Shown here in pieces: positions 2,529-14,772 of a DNA stretch of 64,000 nt. Source of the stretch: an uncultured Candidatus Saccharibacteria bacterium (GTDB taxonomy: Bacteria; Patescibacteriota; Minisyncoccia; Phycocordibacterales; Zambryskibacteraceae); assembly GCA_964446535.1 (NCBI GenBank), contig CAYUOR010000003.1, positions 14,871-78,870 of the forward strand. Reading direction: 5' to 3'. The position numbers and the translations under genes are program-made. The notes under the pieces are model-generated. The model searched no databases. It saw only the letters and a program-made list of their open reading frames with translations, and was not told the origin of the DNA. Every line of letters begins with the position of its first letter. Position 1 is the first letter of the stretch.

Positions 2529-4541
2529 CTATTTTAACTTCGATTCCAGGGCCCTGATTTCGTCGCGCAGTATTGCCGCCGTCTCGAAGTCAAGGTCGCG
2601 AACGGCTTCTTCCATCTCTTTTTTCTTTTCCTTGATGAGTTTCTTGGGGCTTTTGGCGAAAAGTCCTTTGTCTGCCTCTAGAAGAAGGTCGACTGCCGAG
2701 CGATGTTCGCGCTCAAGAGTGTCGGTGATGTCTTTAATTTTTTTAATAATCGTTTTCGGAGTGATGCCGTGCTTCTTGTTATACGCTCTTTGAAGCGTCC
2801 TGCGACGCGCCGTCTCGTCAATTGCCCGCTTCATTGAGCCGGTAACAGAGTCCGCGTATAAAATTACCTTGCCTTCCACGTTTCGAGCCGCTCGACCGAT
2901 AATCTGTATGAGAGAAGTTTCGGAGCGTAAGAATCCTTCTTTGTCGGCATCGAGAATGCCAATCAAAGTTACTTCGGGTAGATCCAATCCTTCCCGAAGC
3001 AGGTTGACCCCAACGAGACAATCAAACTCCGCTCGGCGAAACTTCGTGAGAATCTCAATACGCTCGATGGTCTTTATTTCGCTGTGTAAATACTCGGCTT
3101 TTACGCCTTTCTCTTTCAGAAATTCGGAGAGGTCTTCCGCCATCTTCTTGGTTAGAGTTGTAGCTATGACTCTGCCACCCTTCTTAATGGCCTGCTCCGC
3201 TTCGTTTATAAAGTCGTAAATTTGTCCCTTGTATTCTCTCCTCTCCTGTACCGGACGAACGGAAATTTCCGGATCAACAAGACCCGTCGGGCGAATAACC
3301 TGCTCGACAACTTTAGAACTTTTTTCCCGTTCAAAGTCGGCGGGAGTAGCGCTCGTAAAAATCACCTGCCCGACGCGCTCCTCGAATTCCGGAAACTTTA
3401 AAGGTCGGTTGTCGCGGGCGCTGGGCAGACGAAAGCCGTGTTCAACAAGAGTGTCCTTGCGGGACTTGTCACCGAAATACATTCCACCAATCTGCGGAAT
3501 CGTTACGTGCGACTCATCAATAATCGTCAGGAAATCCGGTTTGCCGTCTTTCGTTTTCGGAAAATAATCTAGCAGCGTATATGGCGGCTCGCCCGCGAGT
3601 TTACCCGAGAAGTGGCGCGAATAGTTTTCAATGCCATTCGTGTAACCCACTTCACGAATAAGTGCTAGGTCATAATTTGTTCTCCTTTTCAGGCGCTCCG
3701 CTTCAAGAATTTTTCCTTCTTTTTTAAGAATCTTGAGCTGTTCCTCTAACTCTTTCTTAATACTCGTGAGGGCGCGCTTCTGTGCCTCGTCGGCGGTGAT
3801 GAAGTGCTTGGCGGGAAAAAGGAAAAAAACTTTCGGCTCCGACATAATCGAGCGCGAAACCGGGTCAATTTTTTGTATTCTCGTGATTTTGTCTTTCTCC
3901 AGTTCTATGCGGTAGAGTGAGCGCTCGGAGACCGGCATTATCTCTATCGTATTGCCGAGAGCGCGGAAGTCGCCCGGTTTTAAGTCCGAATTGGTGCGTG
4001 CGTAATGAATATCGATGAGTTTTCTGATGAAATCGGCCCTGGAGATTTTATCTCCTTTCTCGATTTTAAGATTTACTTTTTCGTACTCTTCTGGGTCACC
4101 TAGGCCGTAAATACAAGAAACGGAAGCAACTATTATCACATCCCTTCTTGTCAGGAGCGCCTGTGTTGAAGCGTGGCGTAGGCGTTCTATCTCTTCGTTT
4201 ATCATCGCCTCTTTTTCTATATAGGTATCGGTCACCGGCAGGTACGCCTCGGGCTGGTAGAAGTCGTAGTAGGAGACAAAGTAGTGCACCGCGTTCTCTG
4301 GGAAAAATTCTCGATACTCCTGTGCTAATTGTGCCGCTAAAGTTTTGTTGTGGGCGATAACAAGTGTCGGTTTCCCTATTTTTTCTATGACATTGGCTGC
4401 TGTAAAGGTCTTACCAGAACCAGTAACACCTAAAAGGGTTTGATATCTTAAACCTTTCTTTATACCCTCGGTCAGTTCTTTTATCGCCTTCGGCTGATCA
4501 CCGGCCGGTTCGAATTCATGATTCAATTTAAAAACGCTCAT
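2529..4541 (-). CDS. uvrB: Excinuclease ABC subunit B (UvrB)
   Basis: 670 aa ORF with GSGKTFTAANVIEKIGKPTLVIAHNKTLAAQL, a helicase core and a C-terminal UvrB/UvrC-interaction coiled coil. It lies adjacent to uvrA. Confidence 0.96.
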   Translation of the reverse strand: MSVFKLNHEFEPAGDQPKAIKELTEGIKKGLRYQTLLGVTGSGKTFTAANVIEKIGKPTLVIAHNKTLAAQLAQEYREFFPENAVHYFVSYYDFYQPEAYLPVTDTYIEKEAMINEEIERLRHASTQALLTRRDVIIVASVSCIYGLGDPEEYEKVNLKIEKGDKISRADFIRKLIDIHYARTNSDLKPGDFRALGNTIEIMPVSERSLYRIELEKDKITRIQKIDPVSRSIMSEPKVFFLFPAKHFITADEAQKRALTSIKKELEEQLKILKKEGKILEAERLKRRTNYDLALIREVGYTNGIENYSRHFSGKLAGEPPYTLLDYFPKTKDGKPDFLTIIDESHVTIPQIGGMYFGDKSRKDTLVEHGFRLPSARDNRPLKFPEFEERVGQVIFTSATPADFEREKSSKVVEQVIRPTGLVDPEISVRPVQERREYKGQIYDFINEAEQAIKKGGRVIATTLTKKMAEDLSEFLKEKGVKAEYLHSEIKTIERIEILTKFRRAEFDCLVGVNLLREGLDLPEVTLIGILDADKEGFLRSETSLIQIIGRAARNVEGKVILYADSVTGSMKRAIDETARRRTLQRAYNKKHGITPKTIIKKIKDITDTLEREHRSAVDLLLEADKGLFAKSPKKLIKEKKKEMEEAVRDLDFETAAILRDEIRALESKLK

Positions 4542-9773: not shown

Positions 9774-10682
9774 CTAGTCGAAAATTTTTACAAGATATTT
9801 GTCTATCTCGCGCTGTTCAAGGTCATAAAAATATTTGCCGAGTTCTTTAAGCTGGGTAGCAAGCTGCACTCCAACAAAGCGCCAGTGCCACGGTTCATAG
9901 ACGTAGTACTTATTACCGGCCGGATAAGAGAGTGTGAAGCCGTATTTATGAGCATTATTCTCGAGCCAGGTGAAAGCTTCGGTATCCTTAAATTTTGAGA
10001 AACTACCGCCGGTTGTGGGAGTGGTGAAGTCAACCGAAGTGCCCAGTTGATGCTCAGAATAACCCTGATCAGCCGAGAATTGGTTGGCAGTGCCGGCGCC
10101 GTAGGTAACGCTGTAGCCGAATTTAAGAGAGGCCTGCTCGGCAAAGGAGCGAAAAGCCGAAACTACAAGAAGATCAATGCCATCTTCCTTGGCTTCAAGG
10201 ATAAGTTTCGTGAGAAAGGGGGCGACCTGAGCGTGGATGAGCTCGTTACTGCCTCCACCTTCAAAAAGGAATTTCTTGTCTATTTCGGCAAGAGCGTCTG
10301 GTACGTAGTGCTCGTTGAGGAAGTAAACCTTGGAATATTTTTGCAATAGCTCTTTGTCGGTCTTAGAAAGCTTATCAAGAACACCCACCGTAGAGGAAAT
10401 AGTGTTTATTTGGTCGTCAAAATTGTCGATAATCCCCTGCTGTTCTGTGGAGCGTTCCTGAAGATGCGAGTAATTTGTTTTAAGAATCTCGTACTCGTGT
10501 TCGAGGAGAATATTTTCTTCTGAAAGGACACGGTAATCTTTCGCAAGCGCACGGTACTGATAGGCCGCATAACCCGCGAGAGGCAGGGTGACGACTATGG
10601 CGACAAGGAGAGCTACTTGAGGATCAGGGCGGAAGTTTTTGAAATCGGGTTTAGACCCTGACTTGGGCTCTGAGATTTTCAT
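9774..10682 (-). CDS. Peptidase M15 family D-alanyl-D-alanine carboxypeptidase (VanY-like), membrane anchored
   Basis: N-terminal TM segment and coiled coil. The C-terminal domain reads VVSAFRSFAEQ...SEHQLGTSVDF...EPWHWRF, matching the Zn-binding HxxxxxxD...H of the VanY/M15B fold. Confidence 0.7.
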   Translation of the reverse strand: MKISEPKSGSKPDFKNFRPDPQVALLVAIVVTLPLAGYAAYQYRALAKDYRVLSEENILLEHEYEILKTNYSHLQERSTEQQGIIDNFDDQINTISSTVGVLDKLSKTDKELLQKYSKVYFLNEHYVPDALAEIDKKFLFEGGGSNELIHAQVAPFLTKLILEAKEDGIDLLVVSAFRSFAEQASLKFGYSVTYGAGTANQFSADQGYSEHQLGTSVDFTTPTTGGSFSKFKDTEAFTWLENNAHKYGFTLSYPAGNKYYVYEPWHWRFVGVQLATQLKELGKYFYDLEQREIDKYLVKIFD

Positions 10683-11563: not shown

Positions 11564-11796
11564 ATTATTTTTAGGTTACTAGTACCTATCTATTATATCC
11601 CGGCTACAAACCTGCCTAGGTAATACGGCCAGATGAAGATGGCGAGTAGCCCCTTACCAAAACTTAAAGAAAGAAAGCCAATGGTAAAGAGCCAGCCCAT
11701 AATCCAGAGGCCAAGCGACATTGAATGATTTTCTACTTTTATTTTCTGCATATAAAAATTTTAGCAAAAATGAAAAGATTCTGCTATTATTTTCGC

Positions 11797-11856
11797 ATTC
11801 CGCGACCAGCCTCGCGTCGGCGAGCTCCGCGAGTCGAGGCGGGTAGCTCAGTTGGT
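11797..11856 (+). repeat. Split partial copy of the tRNA-Asn 5' end (ATTCCGCGA ... TAGCTCAGTTGGT) separated by a 38-nt GC-rich palindromic spacer
   Basis: The 9-mer at 11797-11805 and the 13-mer at 11844-11856 are identical to 12091-12099 and 12100-12112 of the intact tRNA-Asn. The spacer contains GCCTCG...CGAGGC inverted repeats. Confidence 0.6.
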
Positions 11857-11859
11857 TGT

Positions 11860-12102
11860 ATGGCTCACACTTACATCTTATTGAGTGAAGTTGCGAATAA
11901 AACCTATGTCGGCAGTACTACTGACCTGAAAAGGCGCGTTGCCGAACATAATTCAGGAAAATCTACCTTCACGAAAAGGTATGCACCCTGGAAATTGGTA
12001 TATAGTGAACAGTTCGATAATATAAGTGAAGCTCGTCGGCGAGAGAAGTACTTTAAGTCTTCCGCCGGCAGGGCAAAGATTAAAGACTTTATTCCGCGAT
12101 AG
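11860..12102 (+). CDS. GIY-YIG nuclease family protein (UPF0213/YhbQ-like, 80 aa)
   Basis: MAHTYILLSEVANKTYVGSTTDLKRRVAEHN...EARRREKYFK is a GIY-YIG motif with a catalytic Arg/Glu. The track ORF starts at 11725, but homology begins at Met 11860. Its stop codon lies 8 nt inside the tRNA-Asn. Confidence 0.8.
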   Translation: MAHTYILLSEVANKTYVGSTTDLKRRVAEHNSGKSTFTKRYAPWKLVYSEQFDNISEARRREKYFKSSAGRAKIKDFIPR

Positions 12103-12168
12103 CTCAGTTGGTAGAGCGCCTCGCTGTTAACGAGGATGTCCCAGGTTCGAGCCCTGGTCGCGGAGCCA
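12093..12168 (+). tRNA. tRNA-Asn (anticodon GTT), CCA encoded
   Basis: Cloverleaf: acceptor TCCGCGA/TCGCGGA, D stem GCTC/GAGC, anticodon stem CCTCG/CGAGG with loop CTGTTAA, T stem CCAGG/CCTGG with loop TTCGAGC, discriminator G, CCA. Confidence 0.92.
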
Positions 12169-14032: not shown

Positions 14033-14060
14033 AGCCGACCCTCAGTCTGGGGTCGGCTAA
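14033..14060. terminator. Bidirectional terminator hairpin (AGCCGACCC CAGTCTG GGGTCGGCT) between convergent genes
   Basis: Perfect 9-bp stem. An A/T-rich flank sits on the minus-strand side. Confidence 0.45.
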
Positions 14061-14064
14061 AGAA

Positions 14065-14772
14065 TCATTCCCTAATACGAAATCGGTAAGAGAAGATTCC
14101 GCGATAAGCGAGAGCCGTTTCTTCAAGTTCTGACAGGGGTGTTTCCCCAAGCTTTGTCTTGAAGAAAAGCGCTTCGTAAGAGAGTCGTTGTTTTGCAAAG
14201 GAAAGGACTTCCGGTCGAGTGATGAACGGCAGACACGGGCGCTCGTTCAGCCAGAACTCCATTACGCCCAAAGGACTTGCAACGAAGCCACGCGCCTCTC
14301 CAGAGTGCCACGGCTCGCTCCAACTGCAAATCTTTTGGAGATCAATGTCCGAGGGCGGAGTATACATCCTCAACCACCGTGCTTTCTCCGCCTCGTCCTT
14401 CGGCTTGTTGTCACTTCGTCCGTTGTGAGTGTGACCAAACCAGACAAGGTCCTCGGACGCGATGGCTGCATTGGCATAACGAATGTCTGCCTCCACCGAA
14501 TCGCGTGTTCGCTTCTCCGTTTCAATGACCCAAGCGTCCCAGCGCGGGAGAAAAAGTACAGAAACCTCATCTTTGCCAGAGCGCGCCAGCGCGACAAGCC
14601 GATCCAGACCCTCTTCATAACTGAGGAAAATGACGGCGCCCGCAGGTGCCTCAAAATCTTCGCCCTGAATAAGGAGCATTGGCCGATCATTCGGAAGGGC
14701 GTTATTGAGAGAATGCTGGAGCGCTCCGAGCTGCGTTGTTTCCGCTAAAGCCAAGAGTACTGTCAGATACAT
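14065..14772 (-). CDS. Hypothetical protein (235 aa) in a high-GC segment
   Basis: Long ORF. The region is about 53 % GC with open frames on both strands, so it is compositionally atypical. It contains WFGHTHNG, but no confident family. Confidence 0.45.
   Translation of the reverse strand: MYLTVLLALAETTQLGALQHSLNNALPNDRPMLLIQGEDFEAPAGAVIFLSYEEGLDRLVALARSGKDEVSVLFLPRWDAWVIETEKRTRDSVEADIRYANAAIASEDLVWFGHTHNGRSDNKPKDEAEKARWLRMYTPPSDIDLQKICSWSEPWHSGEARGFVASPLGVMEFWLNERPCLPFITRPEVLSFAKQRLSYEALFFKTKLGETPLSELEETALAYRGIFSYRFRIRE

Follow-up and report, generated by a model that had tools for sequence, protein, structure and literature searches.

We analyzed a stretch of 64,000 nucleotides (nt) from an uncultured Candidatus Saccharibacteria bacterium (contig CAYUOR010000003.1; hereafter, the window), which has a G+C content of 46% and contains a gene for a minimal GIY-YIG nuclease wedged between a split copy of the 5′ end of a tRNA-Asn gene and the intact tRNA-Asn gene itself. 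The closest protein relatives of the window place it in a genome of the candidate phyla radiation (CPR)/Patescibacteria (Candidatus Zambryskibacteria/Minisyncoccia). On the forward strand, the locus begins with a promoter-like site (TTAGCA-N18-TGcTATTAT, positions 11761–11790), which was detected by a consensus scan and is presumed to be the native promoter of the tRNA-Asn gene. This site ends 7 nt before the displaced tRNA copy on the same strand, the first part of which (ATTCCGCGA, 11797–11805) represents tRNA nucleotides −2 to 7 and is identical to 12091–12099, and the second part of which (TAGCTCAGTTGGT, 11844–11856) represents nucleotides 8–20 and is identical to 12100–12112. The copy is split by a GC-rich, imperfectly palindromic mini-element of 38 bp (CCAGCCTCGCGTCGGCGAGCTCCGCGAGTCGAGGCGGG, 11806–11843; no strand assigned), designated T1. 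The open reading frame (ORF) of the nuclease (11860–12102, forward strand; 80 amino acids [aa]; Pfam PF01541, E = 2.9e-18) starts 3 nt after the duplicate, and runs into the intact tRNA-Asn(GTT) gene (12093–12168, forward strand), which has the anticodon GUU and an encoded CCA and was identified with ARAGORN and Rfam (RF00005, 69.7 bits). The whole cassette, located between the native promoter and the mature tRNA, spans about 295 bp, of which the ORF accounts for 243. An earlier inspection of the letters alone (the sequence-only reading) had described the same arrangement, and we found every one of its elements where it had been placed. However, that reading had the ORF ending 8 nt inside the tRNA; the overlap is 10 nt with the stop codon and 7 nt of sense codons, the stop codon TAG being tRNA-Asn positions 8–10 (U8-A9-G10). 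It had also assigned all 22 repeated nucleotides to the tRNA 5′ end, which is correct for 20 of them (tRNA positions 1–20); the other two belong to the 5′ flank of the tRNA.

The specificity of this repeat lies in the combination of its parts and in its recurrence in other genomes, because neither part alone is unique in the window. The 9-mer ATTCCGCGA occurs six times (0.7 expected), and its four further copies lie in coding-like sequence with no continuation into tRNA sequence. The 13-mer TAGCTCAGTTGGT, a piece of the D-arm, is also present in both tRNA-Thr genes of the window. The composite split-repeat pattern was found once in the window and in none of 100 shuffles. An Rfam scan at E ≤ 1 detected no family besides tRNA. 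When the leader (the sequence preceding the ORF) was folded as RNA or as DNA, its energy was no better than that of dinucleotide shuffles (z = −1.24 and −1.55, respectively), so folding alone is uninformative on this region, and the suggestion that it is a structured leader mimicking the tRNA received no positive support. A complementarity of 11 nt between 11799–11809 and 12154–12164 was judged to be coincidental: it consists of the acceptor stem, which pairs by definition, and 4 nt contributed by the first bases of the palindrome.

The product of the ORF matches PF01541 with a score of 66.4 bits against a cut-off of 22.6, and its residues Y5, Y16, G18, R26, H30, and E62 do not vary among 29 homologues. 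We take the catalytic roles of these residues to be those assigned from I-TevI and UvrC. The AlphaFold2 model (pLDDT 92.6) has the GIY-YIG alpha/beta fold, and the Foldseek matches to this model were UPF0213, Slx1, I-TevI, and the UvrC N-terminal domains, with TMq values of 0.64–0.71 to Slx1 versus about 0.57 to I-TevI. A profile search of the PDB returned 1zg2 (6e-8) and 1ywl (9e-8), followed by SLX1, so that the UPF0213 protein BH0048 and Slx1 were the best PDB matches; UvrC and I-TevI match the nuclease less well than UPF0213 and Slx1 do. The catalytic domain fills all 80 residues and leaves no accessory domain, and no sequence-specific DNA-binding module for a long target, such as homing endonucleases possess, is present in the 80-aa protein. 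The label “homing-endonuclease type” given by the sequence-only reading needs the qualification that, because it has no DNA-binding module, the protein is a minimal GIY-YIG nuclease of the Slx1/UPF0213 type and not a classical homing endonuclease. Since it is a domain-less relative of Slx1, it probably recognizes DNA structure rather than a long sequence. Judged by sequence comparison, the nuclease is under purifying selection, with a ratio of nonsynonymous to synonymous substitution rates (dN/dS) of about 0.1 against the homologue at locus L002, a value limited by the saturation of dS. The protein belongs to a large family, with 4,349 representatives of clusters at 50% identity at E ≤ 1e-10, distributed across CPR and Bacteroidota.

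Syntenic loci in related genomes (loci from other genomes are designated L plus a number) were located via the VanY gene of the window (9774–10682). They are about 75% identical to the window at the DNA level and share the locus order def-fmt, S30AE, VanY ... tRNA-Asn. Three kinds of alleles were found at this site. The window and L002–L011 are occupied and contain the flank, the split copy, the ORF, and the tRNA. Locus L096 is an empty site, in which the flank ttgattaatgtctaaattcccattattattctaacacc (TTGATT-N17-TATTAT) leads straight into an intact tRNA-Asn gene. The third kind, found in L094 and L097–L099, lacks the ORF and consists of the same type of flank, TTCCGCGAT, a palindrome of another type, GCTCAGT, 25–40 nt, and the intact tRNA; among these, L097 still has the final 9 nt of the ORF (aaaatatat, preceding the tRNA), matching the ORF end of L002. 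The cassette is therefore polymorphic for presence and absence and has a precise empty site, as expected of a homing endonuclease gene, and it is not a constant feature of this locus in the relatives. The sequence-only reading had proposed the footprint of an insertion or duplication event that targeted the tRNA gene, and the empty site (L096), the ORF-less alleles (L094 and L097), and the recurrence with cognate 5′ copies described below all support this. Within the groundwater population represented by L002–L011, the nuclease is identical, yet the hairpin is polymorphic and measures either 38 nt or, with a nested insertion of 27 nt, 65 nt; this insertion distinguishes L002 and L005 from L003, L004, and L006–L011. 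Because the protein is identical while the hairpin differs by 27 nt, the palindromic region is the faster-changing of the two.

In the relatives, the opposite (3′) side of the tRNA-Asn gene is likewise a hotspot of variation. In L002–L009, it carries genes for TaqI-type restriction-modification, AAA_14/DUF4143, and helix-turn-helix (HTH) proteins. In L096, a second copy of the tRNA 3′ end (GTCGCGGAGCCA, approximately 4285–4300) lies about 165 nt downstream, and L007 contains an inverted copy (1489–1552). These 3′-side copies look like ordinary scars of integrase-type islands that are independent of the 5′ cassette. The 5′ repeat itself might also be regarded as the attachment-site scar of an integrase-mediated island or prophage, since tRNA genes are the classical integration sites of such elements; the variable DNA downstream of tRNA-Asn in the relatives (restriction-modification, AAA_14, HTH) and the second 3′-end copy in L096 would agree with this. 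We consider this scarcely credible, because it is the 5′ and not the 3′ end that is duplicated, the insert is just 295 bp and encodes no integrase, and the same tiny ORF is found in the same architecture at many tRNAs. An integrase-type tRNA-integrating element was ruled out by the anatomy of the locus, namely one 80-aa ORF and a duplication of tRNA nucleotides −2 to 20.

The same architecture recurs at other tRNA genes. A scan at one genome per species yielded at least 79 loci, most of them in CPR or Bacteroidota and the rest in a small number of further groups, and we compared 103 unique homologous ORFs. The loci were gathered through the GIY-YIG protein (or the palindrome), they come mostly from metagenome assemblies, and related loci are not independent. 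The fractions below refer to the matches listed and, because the loci were retrieved via the GIY-YIG protein, are not unbiased frequencies. In 56 of the 103 ORFs, an intact tRNA gene on the same strand overlaps the stop codon or lies ≤ 30 nt away; the linked tRNAs are Asn (15), Arg-ACG (15), Gln (14), Arg-TCG (6), Leu (3), Ser (1), Arg-CCT (1), and Arg-TCT (1). Two classes of overlap between ORF and tRNA are recurrent, −10 (19 cases) and −23 (11 cases). In about 30 further ORFs, what comes after the stop codon is a tRNA piece that is truncated or split by a hairpin, the following unit of a tandem array, or the end of the contig. Overall, the architecture was found at Asn, Gln, Arg, Leu, Ser, and Glu tRNAs, in each case with the 5′ end of the cognate tRNA. 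When each leader was compared with its own tRNA, the median colinear chain of exact matches was 21.5 nt; it fell to 9 nt against a tRNA of the same isotype from a different locus and to 6 nt against control DNA or a tRNA of a different isotype. The identity ends 0–4 nt upstream of tRNA position +1.

The nearest homologues of the nuclease (74–75% identity; L001–L011) directly precede tRNA-Asn and overlap it by 10 nt, as in the window, and a homologue of 71% identity (L012–L014) is situated 4 nt upstream of tRNA-Gln. The leader of L012 consists of tGCGGGGTCG, a near-identical palindrome of 37 nt, and TCTAAtG, which together form a split 5′ copy of tRNA-Gln, not of tRNA-Asn. In 13 of 53 cases, the nearest GIY-YIG neighbor was associated with a tRNA of another amino acid specificity, so the targets have been switched repeatedly; the window protein itself shares 72% identity with a protein linked to tRNA-Gln. 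Both pseudogenized copies (L037 and L076) and tandem arrays (L030, L035, L043, and L057) were found. The architecture is present in isolate genomes and in many independent assemblies and is therefore not an assembly artifact; carriers in culture include Flagellimonas, Maribacter, Mesonia, and Pseudozobellia.

These data bear on the possibility that the protein serves the host as a tRNA or RNA housekeeping enzyme that is co-transcribed with tRNAs, with the split copy and the hairpin forming a leader of regulatory function, in imitation of the D-arm and acceptor strand. The conservation of the ORF under purifying selection fits such a role, and the exact identity of the leader to the cognate tRNA could reflect pairing. 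Moreover, one GIY-YIG domain of the Slx1-like kind occurs fused to a TrmH tRNA methyltransferase in Erythrobacter (PMC1564403). Nevertheless, a host function is improbable, given the empty and ORF-less alleles at the same locus in relatives, the sporadic and changing set of linked tRNAs, the tandem arrays and pseudogenized copies, the occurrence of the hairpin in either orientation and at varying positions, the lack of an Rfam match, and the shuffle-level folding of the leader.

We also examined the use of promoters. In the window, the consensus scan found the promoter-like site before the displaced copy and none between the leader and the tRNA. The equivalent flank, TTGATT-N17-TATTAT, directly abuts the tRNA in L096, the empty site; in L002–L011 and L094, it precedes the displaced copy. 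In 11 of 17 Bacteroidota units, the displaced copy is preceded at a distance of 10–26 nt by the motif TAnnTTTG, which we take to be the Bacteroidota −7 consensus, compared with 2.7% of control windows, and only one of 24 Bacteroidota cases has it directly before the intact tRNA. From the positions of these motifs, we infer that the native tRNA promoter drives the leader, the ORF, and the tRNA together.

The 38-nt GC-rich palindromic spacer noted by the sequence-only reading is present as described, with the qualification that it is a separate, dispersed palindromic mini-element. The window contains a single copy of T1, the one within the leader, and this differs at two positions from the consensus of the copies found elsewhere. 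In a scan of metagenomes for the palindrome alone, disregarding the GIY-YIG gene, at least 83 T1 copies were detected on at least 80 loci. Among the matches listed, 13 of 83 copies were in GIY-YIG leaders, six of 83 were in ORF-less split tRNA copies, and 36 of 83 lay inside long ORFs; 33 of these 36 are 39, 42, or 45 nt long (multiples of three), whereas the leader copies are mostly 38 nt. The host genes include those for ATP synthase alpha, TsaE, and a dTDP-sugar dehydratase and, as judged by eye, SecA and UvrA. In frame, a T1 of 39–45 nt adds 13–15 residues, such as PASTRGDDRSSTRGG or NPPRLAETTARRREAG, to essential-looking proteins, as observed at L109, L116/L164, L118, L128, L167, L183, and approximately 30 others of L105–L184. 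The orientation of T1 relative to the ORF was seven versus six among the matches listed.

Because most T1 copies are outside GIY-YIG leaders, the palindrome is an element of its own, and it is enriched in displaced tRNA copies, by about two orders of magnitude according to a rough estimate based on targets of approximately 100 nt. At the loci selected by the GIY-YIG gene, palindromes of the family types are nearly confined to the leaders or to the leader of the next unit, and nearly every GIY-YIG leader has at least one. Neither a fixed-length target-site duplication nor an extended inverted repeat was found around T1, and flanking direct repeats were at the level of shuffles (79 contexts). 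In the tRNA copies, the insertion points cluster at positions 7, 9–10, 16–19, and 20–22, and 80 of 91 insertion points contact a loop or junction, compared with about 54% expected for a single random position, although positional ambiguity and shared ancestry inflate this figure; a preference of the palindrome for tRNA loops and junctions is suggestive only. The palindrome type mostly follows the host phylum rather than the nuclease clade, with L069 and L070 as exceptions.

The association of palindrome and gene raises another explanation, in which the nuclease is a trans-acting, structure-specific mobilizer of the GC-rich palindromes T1, T2, and T3, as RAYT is for repetitive extragenic palindromic (REP) elements. 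The hairpin and ORF in the tRNA leader would then be the autonomous unit, and the solo hairpins would be its non-autonomous copies. Several observations agree with this: nearly all GIY-YIG leaders hold a family palindrome, the sole T1 copy of the 64-kb window lies in a leader, the GIY-YIG leaders and the ORF-less split tRNA copies account for 13 and six, respectively, of the 83 T1 copies listed, the nearest solved folds are Slx1 nucleases, which cut branched DNA, and T1 lacks a target-site duplication, as expected for elements of a hairpin or single-stranded DNA type. In contrast, most of the T1 copies listed have no GIY-YIG gene within several kilobases, the palindrome type tracks the host phylum rather than clearly the GIY-YIG clade, and neutral, highly transcribed DNA or a preference of the palindrome for tRNA sequences could account for the enrichment instead. 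We regard this partnership, the main rival explanation, as rather unlikely on the whole; it is compatible with a mobile cassette and does not exclude one.

Of the interpretations considered, we favor a homing-endonuclease-like selfish cassette that colonizes the 5′ ends of tRNA genes, keeps the tRNA intact by duplicating its 5′ end, and borrows its promoter; on balance, we consider this probable. The cassette would be expressed as one RNA, with the tRNA promoter transcribing the leader, the ORF, and the tRNA, and RNase P would release the tRNA from it. For ORFs of the −10 class, this cut would also deprive the message of its stop codon, and we propose that the nuclease levels would therefore be kept low. 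The nuclease would then break DNA in or near an unoccupied tRNA gene, and repair from the occupied copy would follow, in which the tRNA sequence flanking the ORF would serve as portable homology. Such repair would copy the ORF into the site, and the 5′ duplication would arise from the recipient's own tRNA. With portable homology, the displaced copy would thus be that of the recipient's tRNA, and targets could be switched; recombination stimulated by the nuclease would be the most likely step of movement. The palindrome, which would be separately mobile, would accumulate in the displaced copy and, as a side effect, would shorten the direct repeat that could delete the cassette.

Several points weigh against this interpretation. 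First, mobility is deduced from the distribution of the cassette alone, and no recent gain was caught at this locus, where the compared genomes are about 75% identical. Second, the 80-aa protein has no obvious means of recognizing a site. Third, the intact downstream tRNA retains any target borne by the tRNA, which leaves the escape from self-cleavage unexplained. Fourth, simple repair of a break from the donor predicts a duplicate free of hairpins, yet nearly all leaders carry a palindrome, so that a second process is needed. Finally, the retrieval of loci through the GIY-YIG protein limits how the fractions given above can be read.

A further conceivable mechanism is one in which the leader and hairpin act as a guide, either as RNA or as extruded single-stranded DNA, that would pair with the matching strand of an unoccupied tRNA gene. 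The hairpin, which would not pair, would form a three-way junction at which the nuclease would cut; the target would be set by the nucleic acid, and retargeting would require only a new leader. This would explain the exact match of each leader to its own tRNA, the specificity for tRNA genes without a DNA-binding domain, the near-constant presence of the hairpin, and its varying position. The presence of the hairpin in both orientations (seven versus six), its several types and numbers, and the existence of the same palindrome in protein-coding genes weigh against a guide, and we consider it very improbable.

The selfish cassette that we favor resembles several known systems and corresponds to none of them. 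The Seg family of T-even phages comprises free-standing GIY-YIG homing endonucleases, including SegB in the tRNA gene cluster of T4; these proteins exceed 200 aa and have DNA-binding domains, and their genes sit between other genes without a target duplication. Both groups consist of non-intronic GIY-YIG genes in or beside tRNA genes, are sporadic among relatives, and are presumed to spread by break repair. However, the cassette protein is a catalytic core of only 80 aa, the cassette duplicates the first 20–43 tRNA nucleotides, fuses its ORF into the tRNA, and carries a palindrome, and its hosts are cellular (CPR and Bacteroidota), with only five weak viral matches. Where a bacterial tRNA gene contains a group I intron with a GIY-YIG endonuclease ORF, such an ORF likewise lies inside a tRNA transcription unit. 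The cassette differs from these introns in that it has no ribozyme (Rfam detected tRNA only) and leaves the mature tRNA uninterrupted; because a ribozyme is lacking, the nuclease is not an intron-encoded enzyme, and its score against the NCBIfam model for group I intron endonucleases (TIGR01453) was 25 bits against a cut-off of 56. Islands and prophages that integrate into tRNA genes likewise keep the tRNA functional with a duplicate of the interrupted end, and a direct repeat flanks the insert. Whereas those elements use the 3′ end, span kilobases, and encode a tyrosine integrase, the cassette uses the 5′ end, spans approximately 300 bp, lacks a recombinase, and captures the promoter; given the lack of a recombinase and the 5′ rather than 3′ duplication, it is not an integrative element.

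The closest relatives in sequence and fold are the single-domain proteins of the Slx1/UPF0213 (YhbQ-type) group (1zg2, 1ywl, and the Slx1 nuclease domain; TM approximately 0.7), and a survey of the superfamily in 2006 named prokaryotic Slx1-like proteins that stand alone as the minimal form of GIY-YIG (PMC1564403). Members of this group are regarded as nucleases of repair or with structure specificity rather than as mobile genes, and we found no report of tRNA linkage, target duplication, or a palindrome for them in the searchable literature. As for the palindrome, T1 is short, conserved in sequence, and dispersed, similar to the REP elements associated with RAYT and to the Rickettsia palindromic elements (RPE), and it resembles the latter in its in-frame copies within genes: many conserved palindromic copies were found in unrelated contexts. 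It differs from both in that it is shorter (37–45 nt), has another sequence, and is strongly enriched in displaced tRNA copies near GIY-YIG genes. We know of no Y1 transposase that is a partner of T1. The lack of a target-site duplication sets T1 apart from cut-and-paste transposons and miniature inverted-repeat transposable elements. In the searchable full-text literature, which was queried with the palindrome sequences as well and outside of which most subscription journals lie, neither minimal GIY-YIG cassettes linked to tRNAs nor these palindromes are described, and no prior description of in-frame T1 palindromes in CPR genomes was found.

If our interpretation is correct, the cassette would be among the smallest self-contained selfish DNA units in bacteria, consisting of approximately 300 bp and one 80-aa nuclease. 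It would represent entry on the 5′ side of a tRNA gene, with the tRNA rebuilt and a strong promoter taken, and would thus be the mirror of island integration at the 3′ end. It would also explain the small proteins annotated as “GIY-YIG nuclease family protein” next to tRNAs and the pseudo-tRNA fragments that surround them. The same palindromes occur in frame in essential CPR proteins, and the cassette may be connected to the spread of those elements. A further question is how a nuclease without a DNA-binding domain can be specific for tRNA genes, and the carriers available in culture make experiments feasible.

Some minor observations were made in the window and the other genomes. Approximately 2 kb downstream of the cassette, ATTCCGCGATA (14096–14106) provides an 11-nt match to the 5′ end of tRNA-Asn and lies shortly after a GC-rich hairpin (14033–14058). 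The exact 80-aa product is absent from the called genes of the assembly collection, in which the neighboring VanY protein is present (P0075, 100% identity). Either the annotation may lack the nuclease gene, or it may have been called from the upstream ATG at 11725, reading through the promoter and leader. In L001, which belongs to the nearest named relative, a metagenome-assembled genome of Zambryskibacteria, an NN gap and a piece of the 3′ half of tRNA-Asn (AGGATGTCCCAGGTTCGAGCCCT) precede the leader (2955–2995), and these are probably a scaffolding join across a repeat.

Several loci have variant structures. Full-length tRNA-Arg copies with the palindrome in the D-loop (L076, 1437–2310), in the anticodon loop (L044, 1878–1990), or in both (L065, 2244–2370) alternate with GIY-YIG ORFs, and L076 has one intact tRNA between two interrupted copies. 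In some Bacteroidota (L030, L038, L040, L057, and L060), a 3′ fragment of a tRNA rather than the 5′ end follows just after the GIY-YIG stop codon; it comprises the T-arm with a palindrome in the T-loop and the 3′ strand of the acceptor stem, with a terminator-like hairpin behind them. These loci seem to carry a cassette variant associated with the 3′ part of a tRNA. With respect to viruses, a phage vector was considered and is unsupported, given that only five weak matches to viral contigs were obtained, one of which has the same tRNA-Arg architecture. In that IMG/VR contig (L100, 1215–1600), near the contig end, TAnnTTTG, a palindrome-split copy of tRNA-Arg(ACG), a GIY-YIG ORF, and an intact tRNA-Arg follow each other. 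The contig is classed as viral, and this unit may be host DNA at the border of a provirus.

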